A stretch of DNA of 46,168 nt, taken from the NCBI GenBank assembly GCA_012513575.1, contig JAAZBX010000010.1, forward strand, positions 1 to 46,168. Direction: 5' to 3'. The notes under the pieces were generated by a model that had not been told where the DNA came from, did not search any database, and saw nothing but the letters and a program-made list of their open reading frames with translations. The stretch is from Candidatus Dojkabacteria bacterium (GTDB lineage: Bacteria > Patescibacteriota > Dojkabacteria > SC72). This document shows, piece by piece, positions 3,592-34,452 of this stretch (position 1 is its first letter; each line of letters opens with the position of its first letter). The translations under genes and the position numbers were made by a program.

Positions 3592-6426
3592 ATGTATGAT
3601 AAAAAGATTTTTTGGAAGAAAATAAAAGGATTCTTTCTAAAGAATAAAAAAATAGTATTGAGAATTATCTTGGTTTTATTGGTCGTATTGGTCTTCATAT
3701 TGTTTTTCAACGAATTTTTTCTAAAGGGGAAGTACATAAGTGCAGGGGCATTTCTTTATATCTGGTATCCATGGGCGACTGTAAAACCATCTTTTATTGA
3801 AGGTGTAAGGAATGCAATTGTTTCAGATTGGGTGGATTATTGGGTCGCTGGTTTCTCATATGTGAAAAATGCTAGTCTTAATTCGCTTATAGATGGTTAT
3901 AACGTAAGATCTAGCTGGGGAATGCCAGCTTCAAGTATAATGGGAATTGTAAGTATTCATGAGCCACTTATGTTGATTTTAGTAAAGTCCTTTGGTGAGT
4001 TCTTGGGCTCTACATTACTGTTTATTATAAAACCTTTCATAGGTTTTATTGGAATGCTTCTGTTATCGAAAAAATTGAATATTCATAAATTTGTCGCCCT
4101 TGTTGGTTCTGCAGCTTTTGCATTTAGTATACCAGTAATATCCTATACTTATGGAAGTGCTATTATAGGGACTATTGCACTACCGTTTATTTTTTATGCA
4201 TGTCTTCGTCTAGAAGAAGAATTTAGTCCTATGAATGTATTGCTCTATATCCTTCCCGTTATTTGGCTTCTAACCTGTGCTTTTCCTTCTTCGATTATGT
4301 ATGGAGTTATATTCTCTTTCTTCTTTTTCATAACCCTAATTATTTTTAAACAGGGGATGGAGAAGAAGAAGAAGATAGGAATTATTATGTTATTTGCTAT
4401 TATAAATATTCTTATTTTAGGACTTTGGGCATGGAGTTTACTTCCTAATTTTGTTAATCTAAGGGCGTTTGATTTGGATTATAGAGGAGCTCACGGTCTT
4501 AAGAAATTAGCAAAGCAACATTTTTTACAATGGATATATCCCAACTATTGTGGTAATGGAACATCAATTACTTGGATTTGTGGCTCTAACTGGATAGAAA
4601 CTTCTATGTCATCAGGCTTCGTTTCATTGTTGATGCTCTTTTTTGGTTCACCTTGGATATTTTTGAAAAGTAGAAGAAAAGATAAATACAAATTATTCAG
4701 CTTTCTTTTTGTCATTATTATAATTTTTTGCCTTATTTTCAATCTCTTTAATATCAATAATTTGCTTTCTAAACTTCCGATTTTCTCAATTACTCCTAAT
4801 ACTAGACTGGTTTTTCTTCTTCCATTTTTTGTTTCTCTTGCAGGTATATTCTCCTTCTCGCATATAGTAAACGCATTTACAAAGAAAGAGAATCAAAAGA
4901 AAATAATTAAAATCTGGATAATCTCAGGGATAGGTATCTTAGGAACGTTCATGTTTTATAGTAATGGTATCATTAAGCATCTAAGACTTATGGATAGAGG
5001 TATCCTTAAACAGGACTTTATTCATTTTCTTCTTGTTGCAATAGTAGCTATGATACTAATACTTGCAACATTATATATTAAGAAGAAGCATTGGAAGGCA
5101 GTTTTTTTAGTTGCATTGTGTTTTCTTAGTGCATTTGATTTGTACTATTACAATTCCAAATTCCTACCTTATCAGAAAAAAGAAGAAATCTTTCCAATAA
5201 CAGAAGGGATAGAGTATTTACAGGATAACATGGAGAAGCAAGATAGAATGTTTGCAATAGAAAGAGTTTTTTTGCCAAATACGAACTATTATTACGGTAT
5301 TAATTCTTTAACAGGACATGATTGGAGGACAAAAGCTTTTAATGAAGCAATGCAACCAATAGAAAATGGTATATTTGCAAAAGCAGGTACGATGCAATTT
5401 TTTAGTAGGGAAAAAGTTTTACTTTCTTCTCCAGGGTTAAAGAATTATTTACGATTTAATAGGGTCAAATACATTGTACAAGCACCTTCATCCCTAGGCC
5501 CTGATACTGATCCGCTATTTCTTCAACCATATGTGAGTGACTATATATCTATTGAGAAACCAATTAAATATACGATTACATTGGATCGAGAAGAAGTTCT
5601 TCAATTTATCGAGTTAAATGGTCAATGTGATGTCAATTATAAAGAAATTTTCAAAGCAGAGGATATCAAAATAACCGTTATTGATGAGGAGTCAAAATCT
5701 ACAGTTCTTCCTATACTAGATTTAAAGTCTTCTTGTTCTGTTAATAATAATATACTTCAAATTCAAACACCAAGGATACCTTTAATAGAAGGTTCTAAAA
5801 TAGAGTTAGAAATAGCAAATTCAAGGAATTGGAAACTAGCTGTATACTCTCTTAGAGATTTAAGGAAAGAGACAACGTTGGAAGGTCGTAATGACATTTT
5901 TGAATTAGTAGGTAGGATATATTCTGAGAGTGAGAACGTAGATGTATACAAAGAAGTATATAATAAAGGAGATTTATTAATTCATGAGATTTCGGATCAA
6001 ACATCTACAGCCTATTTTTATTCTTGCAGTGGATTTGACAAGAACGAATGTATTAAGAAGTTAAAGGATTTCAAGATAGAAAACCCAAAAGATTTAACTC
6101 AGTTTAATGACATTTTTGAAGAGTTTGAAGAAGTACCATTTATTGATTATTCAGAGGGTAAGATGTCTCTAGATACTTCTAAGCTTAATAGTAGTGGGGT
6201 TATCATTTTAACGGATAATTATTTTAAGGGTTGGGGCAGCAAGGAGGGGGAAGTTTTCCAAGGGTTTATAGGTAGCTTAAATGTGTTTGTTGAAAACCCT
6301 ATAGATGTAGTTAAATTAACTTATACTAACGAGTATCTTTTGCCAGGTATAGTAATTTCATTTCTATCCACAGGTATTCTTGCAGGTGTTTTATTGATAG
6401 TAAGAAAGAAAAAGCTATTTTTGTAA
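3592..6426 (+). CDS. YfhO-family polytopic membrane protein (GT-C-type glycosyltransferase candidate)
   Basis: 944 aa with many N-terminal TM helices, a large soluble domain, the DNYFKGW motif (YfhO-like D.Y.PGW) and a terminal TM helix. Confidence 0.75.
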   Translation: MYDKKIFWKKIKGFFLKNKKIVLRIILVLLVVLVFILFFNEFFLKGKYISAGAFLYIWYPWATVKPSFIEGVRNAIVSDWVDYWVAGFSYVKNASLNSLIDGYNVRSSWGMPASSIMGIVSIHEPLMLILVKSFGEFLGSTLLFIIKPFIGFIGMLLLSKKLNIHKFVALVGSAAFAFSIPVISYTYGSAIIGTIALPFIFYACLRLEEEFSPMNVLLYILPVIWLLTCAFPSSIMYGVIFSFFFFITLIIFKQGMEKKKKIGIIMLFAIINILILGLWAWSLLPNFVNLRAFDLDYRGAHGLKKLAKQHFLQWIYPNYCGNGTSITWICGSNWIETSMSSGFVSLLMLFFGSPWIFLKSRRKDKYKLFSFLFVIIIIFCLIFNLFNINNLLSKLPIFSITPNTRLVFLLPFFVSLAGIFSFSHIVNAFTKKENQKKIIKIWIISGIGILGTFMFYSNGIIKHLRLMDRGILKQDFIHFLLVAIVAMILILATLYIKKKHWKAVFLVALCFLSAFDLYYYNSKFLPYQKKEEIFPITEGIEYLQDNMEKQDRMFAIERVFLPNTNYYYGINSLTGHDWRTKAFNEAMQPIENGIFAKAGTMQFFSREKVLLSSPGLKNYLRFNRVKYIVQAPSSLGPDTDPLFLQPYVSDYISIEKPIKYTITLDREEVLQFIELNGQCDVNYKEIFKAEDIKITVIDEESKSTVLPILDLKSSCSVNNNILQIQTPRIPLIEGSKIELEIANSRNWKLAVYSLRDLRKETTLEGRNDIFELVGRIYSESENVDVYKEVYNKGDLLIHEISDQTSTAYFYSCSGFDKNECIKKLKDFKIENPKDLTQFNDIFEEFEEVPFIDYSEGKMSLDTSKLNSSGVIILTDNYFKGWGSKEGEVFQGFIGSLNVFVENPIDVVKLTYTNEYLLPGIVISFLSTGILAGVLLIVRKKKLFL

Positions 6427-8319: not shown

Positions 8320-10167
8320 ATGAAGGTAGTTTTTCAAGATTTTATAGGGTGGAAAGATAAACCTCATGCAGAGAGGGAACTAGGCTATAGGATGGAGAAT
8401 GCAGCCAAGAAAATAGGGGTAGAAGGTCTTTATACAGATGATTACGATAAGATTGAGAAATTTAAACCAGATATTGTATTCCCTCTTCATCATTTTACAC
8501 CAAAGTTATTTGATGCATATACAATAGGGTGTATGTGGAATCCAGCAGACTTTATACTGGAAGCAGACAGGGCAGATGGGGTTTACCCTCTTGAAAATAT
8601 AAAGTCCTATGATGCTTTTGCAGTTGCATCTGCCCAAATAAAAAATTTTCTATCAAGCTTATGCTTCAAATCGCCCTTTAAGAGAGAGATTTATGAAATA
8701 TATCCTACCTCTACATATTCTAAATATTCTCCTGTATCTGATTTTAAAAAGGTCACCTATATTGGTTCGAACTGGCAATTAAAGAGACATAGTGAATTGT
8801 TTCTAAAGAGTGATAAGATTGCAGTTTATGGCCCCAGAAAAAACTGGGAATATATTATCAATGAGGGCAGAAATTATTGTGGTGAAGTACCGTTTGGTTT
8901 TAGTTATGTACGTAATGTTTATAGGAGTAACGGTATAGGATTATGTTTTCACGGAGAAAATCATCTTAAGGAGAACATCCCTAATATGAGAGTTTTCGAA
9001 ATGGCGGCATCAGGTGTATTAATCTTTGCTGACAAACTACCGTTTATTGAAGAACACTTTGGTGATTCTGTCAGATATATTGATACAAGCCAAGACACTG
9101 AATCGATAATAGAACAGATAGATTATCAATATAACTGGGTCCTAAAAAACAAATCAAAAGCAAAGGAGATGGCTGTACATGCTAACGAGATTTTTAATAA
9201 AAACTTTACTTTAGAGAAACTACTAAAGGATATTTTTGCATCTTACGAAGGGAGATCACAGTTGTCTTCTTTAAAAGAGCAAAAGTCTTCTGTCGAAATT
9301 ATTGTTCGTACTGATGGAAATAGACCTAGATTACAACATTCAATTGAGTCTTTTGCTAGTCAGATTTATAAAAACCTTATAATAACTTTTGTATATTGGG
9401 GTAACAATAAAAAAGAGTTTGAAAAGAAAATAGCAGAGATAGTACCTACTATTTTAAGATATAGAATTCTAGAAATGAAGGGAAGAAAAGATAGGAGCTT
9501 TAATTTGTATCACGGTATTAGTTCTTCAACTGCAGATTTTATTGGTATATGTGATGATGATGATATCTTATTTAAAGATCACATTAGTTCTTTGGTTAAG
9601 ATGTTAGAGCAAGATAAAGAACTAGCTGTAGCATATTCAGGTGTAATTATGAATGAAATCTCTAAGAGAGGGAATAACAGAGAATTGTTTTTCTTCCATG
9701 ACTTTAGCCATTTCAATGAAAAGAGTTATATAACTAGCAACAGCTACCTTGTAAGAAGGACTAAACTTCCTCATCAGATATTTGGGAATGAAATTCCCAA
9801 TGTATCTACAGGTGAAGACAGAATGTTTTTAGATTTAATATACTTTGATAAAGGTAAGTTCGCTTTCTCGGAGAGGTCAACATCATTGTTTTTTAGGGAT
9901 TTAGTTCACCAGGACAATATTAGTAGTAATATTAAGGAATGGAAAAAGAATCAATCCTTCTATAAAGCTTTTTTAAAAGAGTCCTCTCTTGAGAAGGACT
10001 ACCTTCATTATTGGAGTAAAGCGAAGAAAGTGCAGGAAGAGCCTGAAAAAGAATCTAAGAGAGTTACTATCTTGAAGAAGATTTTTGAGAAATTAATACC
10101 TTTTAGAATTAGGAGATTTATTCTTCTTCTAGTAAAACAGTTAGTTCAAAGCTCCGAAAAGATTTAA
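8320..10167 (+). CDS. Two-domain glycosyltransferase (N-terminal GT-B CgeB/Glyco_trans_1_2-like domain plus C-terminal GT2 domain)
   Basis: N-terminal NMRVFEMAASG motif; C-terminal IIVRTDG, GICDDDD and GED motifs; amphipathic basic tail. Confidence 0.82.
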   Translation: MKVVFQDFIGWKDKPHAERELGYRMENAAKKIGVEGLYTDDYDKIEKFKPDIVFPLHHFTPKLFDAYTIGCMWNPADFILEADRADGVYPLENIKSYDAFAVASAQIKNFLSSLCFKSPFKREIYEIYPTSTYSKYSPVSDFKKVTYIGSNWQLKRHSELFLKSDKIAVYGPRKNWEYIINEGRNYCGEVPFGFSYVRNVYRSNGIGLCFHGENHLKENIPNMRVFEMAASGVLIFADKLPFIEEHFGDSVRYIDTSQDTESIIEQIDYQYNWVLKNKSKAKEMAVHANEIFNKNFTLEKLLKDIFASYEGRSQLSSLKEQKSSVEIIVRTDGNRPRLQHSIESFASQIYKNLIITFVYWGNNKKEFEKKIAEIVPTILRYRILEMKGRKDRSFNLYHGISSSTADFIGICDDDDILFKDHISSLVKMLEQDKELAVAYSGVIMNEISKRGNNRELFFFHDFSHFNEKSYITSNSYLVRRTKLPHQIFGNEIPNVSTGEDRMFLDLIYFDKGKFAFSERSTSLFFRDLVHQDNISSNIKEWKKNQSFYKAFLKESSLEKDYLHYWSKAKKVQEEPEKESKRVTILKKIFEKLIPFRIRRFILLLVKQLVQSSEKI

Positions 10168-27575: not shown

Positions 27576-30034
27576 TGAATAAAAGAACTGCCATTAAAGT
27601 ACTGTTTTTTGTGATTGTTTCTTTTTTTGTCTTGAATAAAGTTTCTTTGGCCCAAAATATTGAAACCTCTGTTACTGTTGGTACTGATACATTCTCACAA
27701 TTAGGTTTAAGTCCTCAGAATGTAGAGATTGCAGAGAAGTCAGAGGTGTTAATAACCGCTTACAATGGAGACGGTACTCCTAAGGTTAATAGAACAATTC
27801 AAATATATGTTGATGGTGATTCTTCAAGTGTTTTCATAGTGCAACCTCCTCCGACCGATACAAATGGAAAAACAAGTGGGGAGATTAGTGCCTCGGTAGC
27901 TGGTACTTATCGTGTTTGTGGTAGAGATATAACTGGTGGTATTTCTGTTGATATTCAACAATGTGAGATGTTGTATGTAACTCCTGTCGCAGTTCCGACA
28001 ATGGTTTCTGAGCCTCAGTATACCGTTGGGACTTCAAATACTGTGTCATGGGGAATATCTGGAACAAACTCGTATGAATACTATGTTGAAGTAAGCACTG
28101 GTCCAGATTTTTCTAGTATCGTTGGGAGTAGTGGGTGGATTTCTACTTTGAGTACAACTTTTAGTAACCTTTCAAGTGGTCAGATTTACTACTACCGAGT
28201 AAAAGCAAGGAACCAATCAGGGGGAGAGAGTGGTTGGTCAAACTACGTATACTCTGTGCAAGAAGCAAGTGCACCTGAGATTACCCTTTTGAGTGTTGTT
28301 AAGCCTTCTAATGTTACAACTGAAAACTTTAACCCCACCCTTCCAGTTACAATTACTTACAGAATTGAGGATAACATGAGTGTCGCCTCAAGAGAGATTT
28401 GGGTGATTTTACCTTCTGGAGAGAAAGTATCAGTTCCTTTCACAACAGTATTGAATGGCAATGTTTGGACTGTAAATATTTTGTTAGGTGATTTGCCTAA
28501 GGATTCACAAGGGAATCTTTTTACGGCTTACAGTTTCTATATTGAAGCGACTGATAATATGGGTAATATGAGTTGGGATAATAGCGCAAGTGTAAATTTC
28601 CCAATTCCATATGTTCCTCCTGTAATTCCTCCGGAGCAACCCCCTGTTGCAGAGAAACCATCAAATCCCGGTGTGCCTGTAAAATTATCAGAAGATGATG
28701 ATAATACCCCAACTTGGACATGGGTTCCTTCATATGGGAAAGATGGGACATTGATAACGAAGTATATTGTAGAATGGTGCTTGGATTTAAATTTTAAGGG
28801 TTGTGAATCGCAATCTATTGAGATTGATTCTAATTCCTTTACTCATTCGACTCCCCTTGGGTTAGGAGAGTGGTTCTTAAGAGTAAGGGCTGTTGGAGAT
28901 GGTGATTTAGTAAGTGATTGGGTTGTGGTAAATTTCTCTGTTTTAGAAAAAAAGGAGGGAGGTGAAGATAGTGAGGAACCCACTAATCCTCCAACTGAAG
29001 AGCCTGAGAAACCAACAAATTGGTTTGTTACAAAAGTTACAGAGCCGGTGAAGCAGTCTGTAGAAAAAGTACTGGAAAATACTGTCGGTAAATTAGATCA
29101 GAAGACTGCACAGGTATTTACAGTAAGTACTGTTGTTACAAATGTGGCTGTTGGTATGGGTTTAATTATCAATATGCTTGGAACTATTCCTTATCTTCTA
29201 GTACAAACATCCTTGGCGTTCTTGAGTTTAATAGGATTTAGGGTAAAAGGTAATCTGTCTGGATATGTATATGATTCAGTTACAAAAGATCCAATTAAGC
29301 AGGCAATTATAAGGATCTTTAATGAGAAAAACGTGTTGGTTTGGACCGATGTATCTGACTACAAAGGAAGATTTAGAAGTCCTGATTTGGAAAGTGGGAA
29401 ATACTACATTAAAGTAACTGGGAGGGATTACAAATACCCGTCATCTATCGTAGTAGGAGAGACAGACTTTCCTTTGGAGAATATATATAGGGGAGGAATC
29501 TTTGAAGTCAAGGATGGTAATATACCTAAATTTTCAATCCCTCTTGACCAATCAGAGTTAAGTACCGTAAAAATCCTAAGTGAGAGATTCTTTTCTAGAA
29601 GTAAATGGTTTTGGAAACCACTACATTTTGGAGTTTTTGTATTAGGACTGGCATTTAGTGCTTATGCTGTTAAGGTGAATCCTATATGGTGGAACTACCT
29701 AATTTTGTTTATGTATATTCCCTCTTTAGTTTTGTTGCTTTTTTCATTGTTTGGAAAGAAAGAGAAGTATGGATATGTTAAGGGAGAAGAGAAGAACTTG
29801 CTTGCGGGCGTTACTGTGCATCTTCTTGATAGTGAATTTGAGAAGGTAGTTTCAACAAGAGTTACTGATGATAGAGGGAGATACAGGTTCTTGGTAGATA
29901 GGGGGATTTATACCATTGAGGTTGCAGATAAGAGATATGTTTTGCAGAAGCCAGACGAATACAGGAGTATAAAGATAAAGAAAGAGACTTCATTTGTACT
30001 TTGTCCAAATCTTATTGTGAAGAGAAGAGTATAG
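27575..30034 (+). CDS. Large membrane-anchored surface protein (Ig-like, FN3 and carboxypeptidase-regulatory-like domains)
   Basis: Signal peptide; TDTNGKT Ig-like segment; FN3 signature YYYRVKARN...SGWS; Pro-rich linkers; TM segments; two prealbumin-like repeats (SDYKGRFR, TDDRGRYRF). Confidence 0.75.
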   Translation: MNKRTAIKVLFFVIVSFFVLNKVSLAQNIETSVTVGTDTFSQLGLSPQNVEIAEKSEVLITAYNGDGTPKVNRTIQIYVDGDSSSVFIVQPPPTDTNGKTSGEISASVAGTYRVCGRDITGGISVDIQQCEMLYVTPVAVPTMVSEPQYTVGTSNTVSWGISGTNSYEYYVEVSTGPDFSSIVGSSGWISTLSTTFSNLSSGQIYYYRVKARNQSGGESGWSNYVYSVQEASAPEITLLSVVKPSNVTTENFNPTLPVTITYRIEDNMSVASREIWVILPSGEKVSVPFTTVLNGNVWTVNILLGDLPKDSQGNLFTAYSFYIEATDNMGNMSWDNSASVNFPIPYVPPVIPPEQPPVAEKPSNPGVPVKLSEDDDNTPTWTWVPSYGKDGTLITKYIVEWCLDLNFKGCESQSIEIDSNSFTHSTPLGLGEWFLRVRAVGDGDLVSDWVVVNFSVLEKKEGGEDSEEPTNPPTEEPEKPTNWFVTKVTEPVKQSVEKVLENTVGKLDQKTAQVFTVSTVVTNVAVGMGLIINMLGTIPYLLVQTSLAFLSLIGFRVKGNLSGYVYDSVTKDPIKQAIIRIFNEKNVLVWTDVSDYKGRFRSPDLESGKYYIKVTGRDYKYPSSIVVGETDFPLENIYRGGIFEVKDGNIPKFSIPLDQSELSTVKILSERFFSRSKWFWKPLHFGVFVLGLAFSAYAVKVNPIWWNYLILFMYIPSLVLLLFSLFGKKEKYGYVKGEEKNLLAGVTVHLLDSEFEKVVSTRVTDDRGRYRFLVDRGIYTIEVADKRYVLQKPDEYRSIKIKKETSFVLCPNLIVKRRV

Positions 30035-30042
30035 ATTAAGTA

Positions 30043-30071
30043 TTGAAAAATCTGCGTTATATTACTATAAT
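30043..30071 (+). promoter_or_regulatory. Sigma70 promoter for tRNA-Lys
   Basis: TTGAAA (30043-30048), a 17-nt spacer, then TATAAT (30066-30071). Confidence 0.75.
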
Positions 30072-30085
30072 CTTGATTGTTTTAT

Positions 30086-30161
30086 GGGTGTATAGCTCAA
30101 TTGGTAGAGCAAACGACTCTTAATCGTTTGGTTCGGGGTTCGAGTCCCCGTACACCCACCA
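30086..30161 (+). tRNA. tRNA-Lys (anticodon CTT), CCA encoded
   Basis: Acceptor GGGTGTA/TACACCC, D-arm AGCTCAATTGGTAGAGC, anticodon arm AACGA-CTCTTAA-TCGTT, T-arm CGGGG-TTCGAGT-CCCCG, then ACCA; 76 nt. Confidence 0.97.
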
Positions 30162-30173
30162 TTCCCAAGTTAT

Positions 30174-30182
30174 TGGTATAAT
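30174..30182 (+). promoter_or_regulatory. Extended -10 element (TGGTATAAT) upstream of the tRNA-like RNA
   Basis: TG-G-TATAAT ends at 30182; the first paired base of the structured RNA (30188) lies 6 nt downstream. Confidence 0.65.
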
Positions 30183-30187
30183 TAATA

Positions 30188-30297
30188 GTAGGTTGGTTGA
30201 GAGTTGGAGAAGCTCTCCCAGTTATTGAAAAATAACTTGCGATGTTGAGTCATCTAAAGGTTTATTCCTGATAGCGGTGCAAGTCCGACAACCTACA
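30188..30297 (+). ncRNA. tRNA-like structured RNA (atypical; about 110 nt)
   Basis: 8-bp closing stem GTAGGTTG/CAACCTAC plus discriminator-like A; hairpins GAGAG/CTCTC, AGTTATT-GAAA-AATAACT, GATG/CATC and AGG/CCT; T-like arm CGG-TGCAAGT-CCG. Confidence 0.6.
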
Positions 30298-30309
30298 AAT
30301 TAGAAATAT

Positions 30310-30777
30310 ATGTTAGATAAAAACACACTGAAAAAATTGTTAAGAGATTTTAATATCAAAGGATATGCTGATCCTAATTCGAAGTATGTAGAAAATGAAA
30401 AGAATGGGAAAGTACTGAAACTTACTATTGATGATTTTACATATGAAGATGAATATTATGGAGGAGAACCATATTCCGGTAATGAAACAATATGGGAAAA
30501 TGGTAAGGATATTTTTAGATGTGTATATTGGGGTAAGGTTGCTAAGGGTATTAATTTTTCTGACATTTATGATTTTTTAAGAAAAGCATTATCAAAAGGT
30601 CCTGATGGAGAATTGGTACATAGAGGACCAGAGGAATATGTTGAAGGAAATTTAAGATATACAAACAGTATAGAAGGAAATATTGAAGATTTTAGACAAG
30701 TAGAAAAAATATTTATGGACGAGAAAGAAGTATATGTTGCATATTTTGTAGGTGGTAGGGTTAATGTTCAGAAATAA
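30310..30777 (+). CDS. DUF5680-like protein
   Basis: YEDEYYGGEPYSGNETIWENGKDIFRCVYWG, FLRKAL, HRGPEEY and EGNIEDF..VEKIF pattern recalled for DUF5680. Confidence 0.65.
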   Translation: MLDKNTLKKLLRDFNIKGYADPNSKYVENEKNGKVLKLTIDDFTYEDEYYGGEPYSGNETIWENGKDIFRCVYWGKVAKGINFSDIYDFLRKALSKGPDGELVHRGPEEYVEGNLRYTNSIEGNIEDFRQVEKIFMDEKEVYVAYFVGGRVNVQK

Positions 30778-30902
30778 ATAGTAGGAAAAATATTATCAAA
30801 TTTCTAACCTTGATGACCTATAGAATTTTCCAATATTTTTATATATAATTACATGTTCTTTAAAATCGTACTAGCAGATTAGAAAATATCTCAGGAGGTG
30901 AG

Positions 30903-31343
30903 ATGAAAACGATAGATTTAGTATGGATACTAGCCGTATGTTGCTTTGTATTACTTATTTGGGCAATAAGTACCACAAGAATTGCAAAGCGTCCACTTAA
31001 GTATTTTACAGTTGTGAACAACAGTCTCTTGGATAAGGAATTCCTTGTCAAGAAAAAACACTTGAGATTTCTTTTGTTATTTGATCCCCATGCAGCCCCT
31101 TTGATTAAAATTTACATTAAAGATGAGAATCTATTAATCAAATGGAGATATTGGAAAGATGAAGAATGGAATCCTATATATAATCGAATGGGTTATTCAA
31201 TTCTTTTCGAGAAGGGTGGTTTACCAATTGATTTTAAGAAAGATCAAATCTTTTTAATTGATATTGTTAGGGAAAAATCCACAAGAAAGAAACTAACAAT
31301 CCGTTCAAGAGCAAAATCTATCAGCATGATAGATCCATCTTAA
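30903..31343 (+). CDS. Hypothetical protein with an N-terminal TM anchor
   Basis: 146-aa ORF preceded by a strong SD (AGGAGGTG, 30893-30900) and starting with a hydrophobic helix. Confidence 0.65.
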   Translation: MKTIDLVWILAVCCFVLLIWAISTTRIAKRPLKYFTVVNNSLLDKEFLVKKKHLRFLLLFDPHAAPLIKIYIKDENLLIKWRYWKDEEWNPIYNRMGYSILFEKGGLPIDFKKDQIFLIDIVREKSTRKKLTIRSRAKSISMIDPS

Positions 31344-31356
31344 ATAGTACGAAACC

Positions 31357-31415
31357 CATGAGGTTATACAATTGGCCATAAGCCAAAATACTTTTTAAGT
31401 ATGTATAACCTCATG
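31357..31415. terminator. 14-bp perfect inverted repeat between convergent genes (probable bidirectional terminator or small structured element)
   Basis: CATGAGGTTATACA (31357-31370) and TGTATAACCTCATG (31402-31415), ending right at the Elp3 stop codon. Confidence 0.6.
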
Positions 31416-33056
31416 TCAAATCCCTTTAAACATATACAAATCATCTCTCTTGTATCCCAACTTCTTGTAATACTCCCTTGTACCTATTGCTGATATAACA
31501 GATATCTTTTTGAACCCTTTCTTTTTTGAAATATTCTCAGCTAACAAAACTAATTCCTTACCCAAACCCAAATGTTGAGACTCTCCTTCCTTACTCTCCT
31601 TGTCTATACCCACAACCTTCCCATACACATGTACCTCTCTAATAATGGAACTGTTACTCAATTCCTCCAGAGGATGATTCTTTGAAATGTTCTTTTTTGG
31701 TAAAGACAATCTCAAAAAACCACAAATCTTGTCTTCTGATTTAATATTGTAAGAAAGAAAAACCTCTCTACCTGTAGAAGTATTGTATTCAATCTTTTCT
31801 AAAACAATATCCTCTCTTCTCACATCCTCCCCCTTAATTTCTCTACTTCGAATATCTTCAGGCTCAATACCTTTCTTTCTCAAATACTCTTCTACAATTT
31901 GCCTAAGATTTGTTCTCTTGTTACCAGCAACAATCTCTTGAGAAGGGATATCCCTAATCACTCGTGACAACCTACAATATCTTGGAGTGGAGGCAATACA
32001 CTCACTTACTACCTCAACTAAAGTTTCTTCTGTATATGGTTTGTATTTACCTTTCTTGTACAAATCAAAAAGCTCAGTATTCGGAATAACGGAGGTAGGG
32101 TAAATCTTCATCTCATCAGGATGATATGGAGTTGTAAACAATTCCTTGTATCCTCGAATATCTTCCTTTTCAGTAGAAAGATACAAATTAGGCATCCAAT
32201 GACCATGTATTTTGAATCCAAACAGTCTCAACAACTCAAAAGCTCTCTTTGTATCCTCAACACTTCTCCCCGTCTCATTCTCTCTTAATACTTTTTCAGA
32301 AAGTGATTGAATTCCGATTTGTATCTTTGTAGCTCCAAGTCTTCTTAAATATATTAATTCACCATTTGAAAGAAAATCTGGTCTAGTTTCCAAAACCAAT
32401 CCAACATTTCTACAATATGCCTTCTCGTTTTTGATTTGTTCCTTTTCTAATTCCTCAAAGGATGAAATCTCAAAACCAGAATCCCTTGGCTCAATATATT
32501 CCTTAGAACTTTTTTTCATATCATTCAATGCTCTAAACATCTCTTTTACAAACCATATTTTGTATTCTCCAGAGTATGCGGAGAATGTCCCTCCAAGAAC
32601 AATCAATTCAATTTTCTCAATATTGTGTCCTACATTTTTGAGTGCGATTAATCTGTTAAACACCTGAGCATATGGATCGAATTTCATCTTCAATGCTCTT
32701 TGACCACCTGGTTCCGAAGCTATGTAGCTCTTAGGCATACTTCTGTCATTCGGACAAAAGATACAATTTCCTGGACAGTAGTAAGGCATCATCATTACTG
32801 TTACAACGGATACGCCAGAATTTGTTCTAGTAGGTTTCAATCGAATCCTTTTCTCAATTAAGGATATATTCTTTTTTGAAAAATCTTTTTTGACAATCAC
32901 AAACATCTTTACAAGTTCATCATTTCTGTAAAGTTGTCCATCATTTTTTTTGAATTTCCTAAGTATTTTGTTCAAGGAATTCTGATTCCACTTTTCTTCA
33001 GAAGCAATATTCTCAAAAAGTTCTTTAAATTTTTCTTTTTCTGTAATTTCTTTCAT
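31416..33056 (-). CDS. elp3: Elp3-family radical SAM/GNAT tRNA U34 carboxymethyltransferase
   Basis: TNSGVSVVTVM, CPGNCIFCP, PKSYIASEPG, KIELIVLGGTF, LETRPD, IREVHVYG, QHLGLGK and ISAIGTREYYKKLGY motifs. Confidence 0.95.
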   Translation of the reverse strand: MKEITEKEKFKELFENIASEEKWNQNSLNKILRKFKKNDGQLYRNDELVKMFVIVKKDFSKKNISLIEKRIRLKPTRTNSGVSVVTVMMMPYYCPGNCIFCPNDRSMPKSYIASEPGGQRALKMKFDPYAQVFNRLIALKNVGHNIEKIELIVLGGTFSAYSGEYKIWFVKEMFRALNDMKKSSKEYIEPRDSGFEISSFEELEKEQIKNEKAYCRNVGLVLETRPDFLSNGELIYLRRLGATKIQIGIQSLSEKVLRENETGRSVEDTKRAFELLRLFGFKIHGHWMPNLYLSTEKEDIRGYKELFTTPYHPDEMKIYPTSVIPNTELFDLYKKGKYKPYTEETLVEVVSECIASTPRYCRLSRVIRDIPSQEIVAGNKRTNLRQIVEEYLRKKGIEPEDIRSREIKGEDVRREDIVLEKIEYNTSTGREVFLSYNIKSEDKICGFLRLSLPKKNISKNHPLEELSNSSIIREVHVYGKVVGIDKESKEGESQHLGLGKELVLLAENISKKKGFKKISVISAIGTREYYKKLGYKRDDLYMFKGI

Positions 33057-34344: not shown

Positions 34345-34452
34345 TTTTTGTAATTTAAGAAGTTGAGGGACCTATAGTAGGTATGGTATAATATAAGTAG
34401 TATGAGGCAAATGCTTCTACAAAAATCCATAGCTCTTTAGAAAGGAAATAAG

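Follow-up and report, generated by a model that had tools for sequence, protein, structure and literature searches.

A previously undescribed family of tRNA-like RNAs in accessory-gene regions of Dojkabacteria

Introduction

What does a genome of Candidatus Dojkabacteria bacterium encode in the short interval between a transfer RNA (tRNA)-Lys gene and a gene of the DUF5680 family? The interval lies on the forward strand of contig JAAZBX010000010.1 (GenBank assembly GCA_012513575.1), the 46,168 nucleotides (nt) of which were analysed as a whole and are called here the window. An initial annotation had proposed that positions 30188-30297 specify a tRNA-like RNA with a non-canonical acceptor/T branch and its own promoter, and had considered an unusual decoding tRNA and a leader of the DUF5680 gene among its possible roles. 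We find that this element is very probably a genuine functional RNA gene of a new family. The family is previously undescribed, is absent from Rfam, and resides in accessory-gene regions of Dojkabacteria, which belong to the candidate phyla radiation (CPR). The acceptor/D/T half of a tRNA forms its constant part, while in place of the anticodon arm there is a variable part. Taken as a whole, we propose a non-decoding, trans-acting tRNA mimic that would work through its acceptor/T/D half, a reading to which we give about an even chance.

Structure of the element

The fold predicted for 30188-30297 comprises a closing stem of 8 base pairs (bp), a D-like arm, three small hairpins and a T-like arm. 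The parts are listed below, with L numbers denoting loci compared with the window; L003 carries a divergent copy.

30188..30297, forward strand: tRNA-like RNA, type A, from G1 to the discriminator-position A (covariance model R2, 45.4 bits, E = 3e-11).
30188..30195, forward strand: acceptor-like stem, 5' strand GTAGGTTG, pairing with 30289-30296; pair 7 covaries (U-A / C-G).
30199..30217, forward strand: D-like arm GAGAGTT-GGAGA-AGCTCTC, with a 5-7 bp stem and a conserved GG in the loop; two stem pairs covary.
30220..30237, forward strand: hairpin 2, AGTTATT-GAAA-AATAACT, at the anticodon-arm position, with 7 bp and a GAAA loop; the stem covaries with L003 (loop UCUA).
30241..30254, forward strand: hairpin 3, GATG-TTGAGT-CATC, with an invariant stem and a variable loop.
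30258..30269, forward strand: hairpin 4, AGG-TTTATT-CCT, with GG/CC pairs retained; GGA-GAAA-TCC in L003.
30275..30288, forward strand: T-like arm CGG-UGCAAGU-CCG (30275-30287) and A30288, which is unpaired or bulged; T-loop position 55 is G (U in L003).
30289..30296, forward strand: acceptor-like stem, 3' strand CAACCTAC, from the fold and the 24-sequence alignment.

The minimum free energy (MFE) calculated with ViennaRNA is -34.5 kcal/mol, compared with a shuffle mean of -22.9 (z = -4.01), and none of 200 shuffles was equally stable. The MFE structure is identical to the fold drawn in the initial annotation, and when the sequence was re-read all of the coordinates, stems and arms given there, the unpaired A30288 and the lack of an encoded CCA were found as described. 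The discriminator position is occupied by A30297 and is followed by AATTAG; comparison of flanks revealed an encoded CCA in no copy of the family.

The acceptor/T branch is non-canonical, as had been claimed. The proposed geometry of 8 bp, a G-A mismatch and 3 bp is possible, but 7 bp followed by a 4-bp T stem with a bulged A fits equally well. Covariation leaves the two geometries equal because G8, the G before CGG and the C after the A are all invariant. The features of a tRNA elbow are present, namely a T loop of UGCAAGU or UUCAAGU and a D loop of UUGG(U)AGAAG or UUGGGGAAG in which GG is invariant. The T-like arm proved to be a true T arm, as the divergent copy in L003 has GGTTCAAGTCC at this place.

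Two further complementarities were observed. On the 3' side of hairpin 2, at its base, ACUUGC (30235-30240) could pair with GCAAGU (30279-30284) in the T loop; a pseudoknot between them was considered and is unsupported, with no compensatory change in L003. The sequence UUGC that follows the D arm or hairpin 2 is kept in all types of the RNA described below; its partner in type B is GCAAU, at the base of the long arm. The 46-kb window contains the element as a single copy only.

A family with constant ends and an exchangeable middle

One metagenome scan with the 18-mer TAGCGGTGCAAGTCCGAC returned 44 loci, of which 32 contained a clear relative. Together with the window, L001 and L013 these provide 24 distinct sequences of three types, to which L003 adds a 25th. 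The 25 sequences, collected by the scan and the covariance model, are spread over at least 12 flanking contexts that are unrelated to one another and all Dojkabacteria-like. Throughout these contexts similarity begins at G1 and ends just after CCUAC-A, and 30188-30297 is the exact block conserved in all of them. Model R2, built upon the shared ends only, recovered all copies as well as the divergent type A copy in L003 (2565-2669).

Type A, to which the window copy belongs, measures 108-109 nt and type B 114-116 nt, while type C is a single sequence (L135). All types have in common the 5' part GUAGGU[CU]GGUUG[UA]GAGUUGG(U)AGAAGCUC[AU]C and the 3' part UAGCGGUGCAAGUCCGAC[GA]ACCUAC-A. The middle is wholly different. 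Type A contains three small hairpins, whereas types B and C contain one long bulged arm, AUUGC...GCAAU, with an apical loop of GUAAAA or GUAAUA; this rod of about 60 nt produces a four-way cloverleaf. Type B sequences are about 95% identical among themselves although their flanks share nothing.

Compensatory changes were found in several parts of the structure. In the tRNA-like core of the 24 sequences 99.1% of the cells are paired and three pairs have changed on both sides; the covariation score was matched by none of 500 shuffles, and in slid controls pairing falls to 31-45%. Acceptor pair 7 is C-G or U-A, the latter occurring also within type B (L166). In the D stem one pair varies between G-C and A-U, with G.U intermediates, and another between U-A and A-U. 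In the type B/C cloverleaf seven pairs have changed on both sides, six of them in the long arm, compared with 0.7 expected from shuffles. The nine type A sequences have 99.7% of cells paired and three pairs changed on both sides. Two compensatory pairs are evident when hairpin 2 of L003 (AAACUAU-UCUA-AUAGUUU) is set against that of the window (AGUUAUU-GAAA-AAUAACU); L003 furthermore keeps the stem of hairpin 3, has GGA-GAAA-UCC as hairpin 4, and has the canonical T loop UUCAAGU in place of the UGCAAGU of most copies. Since several of the conserved pairs are G.U, the fold is specific to the transcribed, promoter-proximal strand.

Over the first six acceptor pairs and A73 only three single-sequence changes were detected, two leading to G.U wobbles and one to a mismatch (L146, pair 5). 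Of the 24 sequences 23 have A3-U70, and G.U occurs only in L144/L160. Because these six pairs and the discriminator are kept while the middle is replaced, we infer that the acceptor end is recognized by its sequence and not by shape alone.

Searches against known RNA families

No match to the element exists in Rfam 15, either at gathering thresholds over the window or at E <= 10 over a 451-nt slice. A cmscan of 30000-30450 at E <= 10 lists tRNA-Lys alone, and the element does not attain the RF00005 threshold (29 bits). Type B likewise has no Rfam match at E <= 10. In standard mode ARAGORN calls only tRNA-Lys in the window, and neither its intron mode (default settings) nor its mode for transfer-messenger RNA (tmRNA) makes a call on the family. 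The proposal of an unannotated tRNA-like RNA is supported.

Comparison with isolate phages and plasmids by blastn yielded chance 21-mers or nothing. Two candidates were rejected. The model match in L104 is a coding region followed by a minihelix resembling half a tRNA, and is not a homolog. The longer T-arm pattern AGCGGTGCAAGTCCGACA has a single match in viral contigs, which falls within a coding region.

Promoters and transcription

The element is a transcribed RNA gene, and its promoter is placed so that the transcript would begin at or next to G1. Two promoters precede it.

30162..30187, forward strand: spacer with the extended -10 box TGGTATAAT (30174-30182), read directly from the sequence.
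30043..30071, forward strand: sigma-70-like promoter of tRNA-Lys, TTGAAA-17-TATAAT, 11/12 matches; read-through from it also covers the element.

The last base of TGGTATAAT lies 6 nt before G30188. The initial annotation had placed the start at or next to the first base on the strength of this box, and the recurrence of the spacing elsewhere bears this out: TGnTATAAT-type boxes stand 5-6 nt before G1 in the window, L140, L144, L146, L157, L165, L170/L179 and L003. Because there is no -35 hexamer, a sigma-70 scanner did not list TGGTATAAT. Other type B copies have only TTAT directly before G1, so they must be read through from upstream, which would imply processing of the 5' end, putatively by RNase P.

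Many runs contain the DNA of these bacteria, which occur in anaerobic digesters. Public RNA runs were read as assembled contigs, denoted by X numbers. Metatranscriptome contig X25 (30109-30405) spans the 3' half of tRNA-Lys, the spacer, the element and the start of DUF5680. The first four RNA runs compared leave the upstream open reading frame (ORF) uncovered, whereas two of the following four cover it. Three runs contain contigs (8707-8857, 8720-8874 and 8722-8854) that represent a type B RNA located at 8699-8814, and in a fourth run a contig at 8539-8817 (X56) reveals read-through from the upstream gene. The scanner located no terminator after type B, where there is only a weak AU hairpin followed by U5.

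Genomic setting

The genes around the element in the window are as follows.

30086..30161, forward strand: tRNA-Lys(CUU) with encoded CCA (ARAGORN; RF00005, 75.3 bits); the RNA unit starts after its 3' end.
30310..30777, forward strand: DUF5680 gene (PF18931, E = 2e-24), co-transcribed here, not a conserved partner.
30903..31343, forward strand: orphan ORF of 146 amino acids (aa), within the stretch, variable among strains, that separates the RNA from the Elp3 gene.
31416..33056, reverse strand: Elp3-family tRNA U34 modification enzyme (radical SAM + GNAT; TIGR01211, 502 bits), a conserved chromosomal flank.

The end of tRNA-Lys at 30161, 26 nt upstream of the element, was confirmed. In type A genomes the RNA is situated between tRNA-Lys and the convergent Elp3-family gene. 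The stretch 30297-31415 is strain-variable, and gene content switches immediately after CCTACA: DUF5680 and the orphan ORF follow in the window, a NADAR-family gene and DUF5680 in L153 and L156, and another ORF in L142. No gene follows in L168 and L139, where Elp3 ends 25 nt after the RNA, and in L165 DUF5680 is found on both sides. In L003 the RNA comes after DUF5680, directly behind the 3' end of a pseudo tRNA-Lys and a TGATATTAT box.

The unit stands directly after the 3' end of a tRNA or pseudo-tRNA, with the promoter in the spacer, in the window, L003 and L179/L170. The window spacer, from the 3' end of tRNA-Lys to G1, resembles those after the pseudo-tRNA 3' ends in L179/L170 and L003. 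Type B in L179/L170 is an RNA-only unit of promoter, RNA and hairpin between direct repeats of about 33 nt, ATCCTACTYTTAAKTTCCATGCCTGAAAGKGTA (L179, 150-420), the upstream copy of which runs into a pseudo-tRNA 3' end, GCCCACCA. The repeat core TTCCATGCCTGAAAG was found in ten Dojkabacteria loci (L179, L170, L140, L143, L158, L164, L169, L172, L173 and L178) and is sometimes followed by the same pseudo-tRNA 3' end. The repeat of the L179 cassette is absent from the window, where only strain-to-strain turnover of the genes after the RNA was observed.

Several short motifs were noted in these regions. The sequence TAAATAGTA[GC]GAAA follows the stop codons of DUF5680 (30775-30788) and of the 146-aa ORF (31341-31354), and AATAGTAGG also precedes the RNA (30180-30192); this is either a cassette-end motif or chance. 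GACCTATAG is located about 20-30 nt upstream of TATAAT-type boxes (window 30815-30823 and 34369-34377; L142 5982) and is possibly promoter-associated. The occurrence of GATGACCTATAGAAT after DUF5680 was considered as a pseudo-3'-end of the RNA at a cassette border, an idea that was dropped because the motif recurs upstream of TGGTATAAT promoters (window 34369, L142).

Relation to DUF5680

The element ends 13 nt before the start codon of DUF5680, which has no Shine-Dalgarno sequence. Because DUF5680 also lacks a promoter of its own, in the window it is co-transcribed behind the RNA. Among 13 loci with DUF5680 relatives the element precedes the gene only in two near-identical genomes (L001 and L013). 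In L002, L003, L005, L006 and L008 we found instead the 3' end of a tRNA-Lys or pseudo-tRNA, a promoter, an untranslated region (UTR) of about 25 nt and DUF5680, with no element there. No copy is present in 27 further DUF5680 contigs from three other lineages. Since most DUF5680 loci lack the element, it is not a conserved leader of this family, and DUF5680 was rejected as the partner of an RNA that is mostly absent from the 13 genome loci and 27 contigs.

The DUF5680 family is widespread in Patescibacteria (127 clusters). The AlphaFold model, with a predicted local distance difference test score (pLDDT) of 93.4, is a tandem of two units, each of a helix plus four strands. Compared with the PDB it has no match at E <= 0.001, the best query-normalised template-modelling score (TM-score) being 0.32, and there is no sequence match in the PDB; both negatives counted in the rejection of DUF5680 as a partner. 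The best fold matches are weak and chorismate-lyase/UTRA-like, with TM-scores of about 0.25-0.3. Behind the RNA in L013 the match to DUF5680 extends over only about 21 residues (2001-2063), and in L165 DUF5680 (922 onward) was missed by tblastn; the gene may be decaying in the L013 and L165 strains. In metatranscriptome contig X36 the RNA and DUF5680 are separated by an insert of about 480 nt, which a duplication of 30297-30310 (AAATTAGAAATATA) flanks.

tRNA-Gly-like RNAs linked to Mom in phages

Viral contigs were scanned with the 14-mer of the T arm, which returned 120 loci, mostly not of the Dojkabacteria family. Many of the matches are cloverleaf RNAs of 72-77 nt. In 16 of the 120 loci a gene of the Mom family is adjacent (PF25680, E = 2e-58 in L051), and in 15 of these 16 a distance of 29-57 nt separates the end of Mom from the T-arm motif, which places the start of the RNA at or over the stop codon of that gene; the order is reversed in L034. 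In L051 the tRNA-Gly-like RNA (3748-3817) is followed by the gene for the small terminase (terS). It occurs beside Mom also in L015, L020, L027, L030, L034, L055, L062, L075, L100, L107, L122, L124 and L128.

The Mom-linked RNAs have G1-C72, C2-G71, mostly G3-C70, U73 and often an encoded CCA. The anticodon-like hairpin has a loop of 4-7 nt that always contains NCC, and the T arm is GGCGG-UGCRANU-CCG(A)CC, with UGCAAGU in the viral 14-mer matches. Compensatory changes affect 11 of 18 predicted pairs, and one of these RNAs, submitted to Rfam, had no match. The cultured Psychrobacter phage vB_PmaS_Y8A (OQ059336.1; L213, ~1362-1503), found by protein search alone, carries the T-arm signature in two tandem unannotated units between a Mom homolog, which is annotated as hypothetical, and terS, with UGCGACU and UGCAAUC as T loops.

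Work from 2026 showed that Mom of phage Mu takes glycine from Gly-tRNA-Gly and attaches it to N6 of adenine in DNA, and so uses a charged tRNA outside translation (PMC13219725). A search of that article by terms gave no linked tRNA-like gene. Because Mom uses Gly-tRNA-Gly to modify DNA, the Mom-linked RNAs are probably dedicated glycine carriers for Mom. This side finding may matter sooner than the Dojkabacteria family itself, as many Mom homologs, including the one in a cultured phage, are followed by their own unannotated tRNA-Gly-like gene. The T arm in common with these RNAs is the only hint of function that we found for the Dojkabacteria RNA.

Function and alternative explanations

In the mechanism that we propose, the two ends of the RNA build the top half of a tRNA: the acceptor stem ends in a discriminator A, the D arm contains GG, and there is a T arm with its T loop. 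The place of the anticodon arm holds a domain that varies with lineage, either three hairpins (A) or a long rod (B, C). Transcription would begin from the extended -10 promoter at or next to G1, or come by read-through where the RNA stands behind a gene or tRNA, in which case a cut at G1, putatively by RNase P, would be needed. Maturation would resemble that of a tRNA, with putative trimming of the 3' end and addition of CCA. The product may then act in trans on a protein that recognizes the acceptor end and elbow of tRNA, serving it as substrate, carrier or decoy. The missing anticodon and a T stem of 3-4 pairs with a G.A mismatch or bulged A could exclude it from translation. The gene is carried in strain-variable, cassette-like regions and, in at least one lineage, as an RNA-only cassette between direct repeats.

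Several observations weigh against this proposal. No partner protein is common to the copies, the type B neighbours being YGGT, a small GNAT, ASCH, an S41 peptidase and orphans. In the window the RNA lacks a terminator and also serves as the 5' portion of the DUF5680 transcript, and a CCA is not encoded. The RNA-run contigs are of low depth and carry-over of DNA is possible. Conservation of the T arm is partly forced by the search pattern, only L003 having been found independently, and there are few independent substitution events because all copies come from one narrow clade. No Mom homolog was found by tblastn with two Mom proteins in 536 kb made up of the window and CPR loci.

Among the alternatives, a tRNA-shaped processing signal is the most probable, though still unlikely. 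Excision by RNase P and RNase Z would separate transcripts and define the 5' end of an mRNA, and the excised RNA would have no role. Such a signal would suit the window, where DUF5680, with neither a promoter nor a Shine-Dalgarno sequence, begins 13 nt after the element and RNA contigs run through tRNA-Lys, element and DUF5680, and it would suit the several type B copies that lack a well-placed -10 box and are read through (X56, 8539-8817). It does not account for type B in L140, L170 and L179, which is an RNA-only unit with its own promoter and no co-directional gene, nor for L168 and L139, where the RNA faces the end of a convergent gene, and neither a near-invariant acceptor sequence nor a covarying arm of 60 nt is needed for cleavage. 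We regard as distinctly less probable a role at the level of DNA, in which a cassette recombinase would use the element as an attachment or landing site, or as a structure in single-stranded DNA, and the likeness to tRNA would be mimicry of a target. The change in type A gene content immediately after CCTACA (window, L153, L142, L168) and the fact that copies always abut the 3' end of a tRNA or pseudo-tRNA would be expected of such a site. The conserved G.U pairs, which give a strand-specific fold, the promoter set on G1 in many contexts and the coverage of the element by RNA-run contigs all speak for an RNA instead; furthermore the L179 repeat (TTCCATGCCTGAAAG...) is unlike the element and absent from the window, no pseudo-copies of the 3' end of the element are found at cassette borders, and GACCTATAG appears to be promoter-associated.

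The remaining explanations carry very little weight. A decaying tRNA pseudogene or neutral, lineage-specific cluster of hairpins would agree with the narrow phylogenetic range, the absence from the same locus in sister lineages and the lack of a known partner; it is highly improbable given sharp conservation boundaries in at least 12 unrelated flanks, compensatory changes, a promoter at a fixed distance, and type B sequences about 95% identical despite unrelated flanks. Slimmer still is the chance of a cis-regulatory leader or riboswitch of DUF5680, which the initial annotation had entertained on finding the element shortly before that gene. Its position 13 nt before the start codon and co-transcription in the window lineage are what a leader would show, but L002, L005, L006 and L008 have a promoter, a short UTR and DUF5680 with no element, in L003 the element follows the gene, L168 and L139 have no DUF5680, other genes come next in L142 and L153, the 27 other DUF5680 loci have no copy, and type B stands alone; as a general role the leader was therefore discarded. 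Least probable of all is a decoding tRNA of unusual shape, whether allo- or selenocysteine (Sec)-like with 8/4 geometry, intron-containing, or a quadruplet decoder. An 8-bp acceptor plus a short T stem would make a 12-layer minihelix, and relaxed ARAGORN (-ps80) bounds exactly G1 to the discriminator. The anticodons that it proposes are inconsistent, however, with seven different ones (Pyl, Phe, Ile, Ala, Leu, Ser and Tyr), and RF00005 gives no match at E <= 10. Hairpin 2 permits only even-sized loops, so that a 7-nt anticodon loop is impossible, and the GAAA once suggested as a quadruplet anticodon is UCUA in L003, while in types B and C a rod of about 60 nt replaces the arm.

We return to the non-decoding mimic, for which one extension may be offered. 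The Dojkabacteria RNA and the phage Mom-linked tRNA-Gly-like RNAs could form one class of dedicated non-ribosomal carrier tRNAs, an idea that we consider doubtful though less so than any of the alternatives above. The acceptor end and elbow would be kept, a weakened T arm (G55, bulged A) would keep the RNA off the ribosome and off elongation factor EF-Tu, and a transferase would receive from it an aminoacyl or acyl group; in CPR bacteria the gene would be exchanged as a mobile RNA-only cassette.

Comparison with known tRNA-like systems

With canonical tRNA (RF00005) the Dojkabacteria RNA has in common an acceptor stem closed by the two ends, a discriminator A, a D loop with GG, a T loop of 7 nt and a neighbouring tRNA gene. 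It differs in having no anticodon arm or loop, a length of 109-116 nt, 3-4 nt rather than 2 between the acceptor and D stems, a T stem of 3 bp plus G.A or of 4 bp with a bulged A, and G55 in most copies. The tRNA-like domain of tmRNA is similar in that the ends form a module of acceptor, T arm and D analogue and the anticodon arm is replaced by other RNA; the Dojkabacteria RNA has neither a tag frame nor pseudoknots, is about one third the size, and has A3-U70 and not the alanine determinant G3.U70. As a side observation, the same T arm, GGCGGUGCAAGUCCG, is present in permuted tmRNA calls made by ARAGORN in phages (L041 2642-3098, L106 and L048 5180-5505), and in L041 and L106 an extra tRNA-like unit with a UCCAA loop lies beside the call.

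Allo-tRNAs and tRNA-Sec reportedly have 8/4, 9/3 and 8/5 acceptor/T geometries, as Mukai and colleagues are said to have described in 2017. The possible 8-bp acceptor with a short T stem, giving about 12 layers, and the long D stem are points of likeness. Those tRNAs keep a normal anticodon arm and decode, whereas the Dojkabacteria RNA has no such arm and the 7/4 geometry with a bulge fits it equally well.

Non-decoding tRNA mimics include the bacterial YrlA Y RNAs, Bacillus cereus tRNA-Other, the staphylococcal non-proteinogenic tRNA-Gly and mammalian mascRNA, all of which reuse the architecture of tRNA, and often the enzymes of tRNA processing, outside decoding. The Dojkabacteria RNA has no sequence or model match to such mimics in Rfam and differs from them in its variable middle and cassette setting. 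Nearest in its T arm are the Mom-linked RNAs, which have the same GCGG-UGCAAGU-CCG-A-C with G55 and a bulged or mismatched A, 16 nt (GCGGTGCAAGTCCGAC) being identical, and which are likewise cloverleaf-like, unannotated, outside ARAGORN and Rfam calls, and non-standard in the anticodon region. These are about 70-77 nt long with a glycine identity set, usually an encoded CCA and a position directly behind the Mom gene, while the Dojkabacteria RNA has G1-C72, U2-A71, A3-U70 and A73 and neither an NCC loop nor CCA.

Cells and mobile elements have repeatedly used mimicry of tRNA to gain access to the machinery that handles tRNA, and the known mimics (tmRNA, the Y RNA-like YrlA, viral tRNA-like structures and non-proteinogenic tRNAs) have each revealed a new pathway. 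To these the present family adds one that is invisible to tRNA finders and has a modular logic, a constant tRNA top half with an exchangeable bottom. It travels in the accessory-gene regions of CPR bacteria, ultra-small organisms with an almost unexplored RNA biology, and offers a concrete object of about 110 nt with defined ends with which to ask which tRNA-binding enzyme is being addressed.

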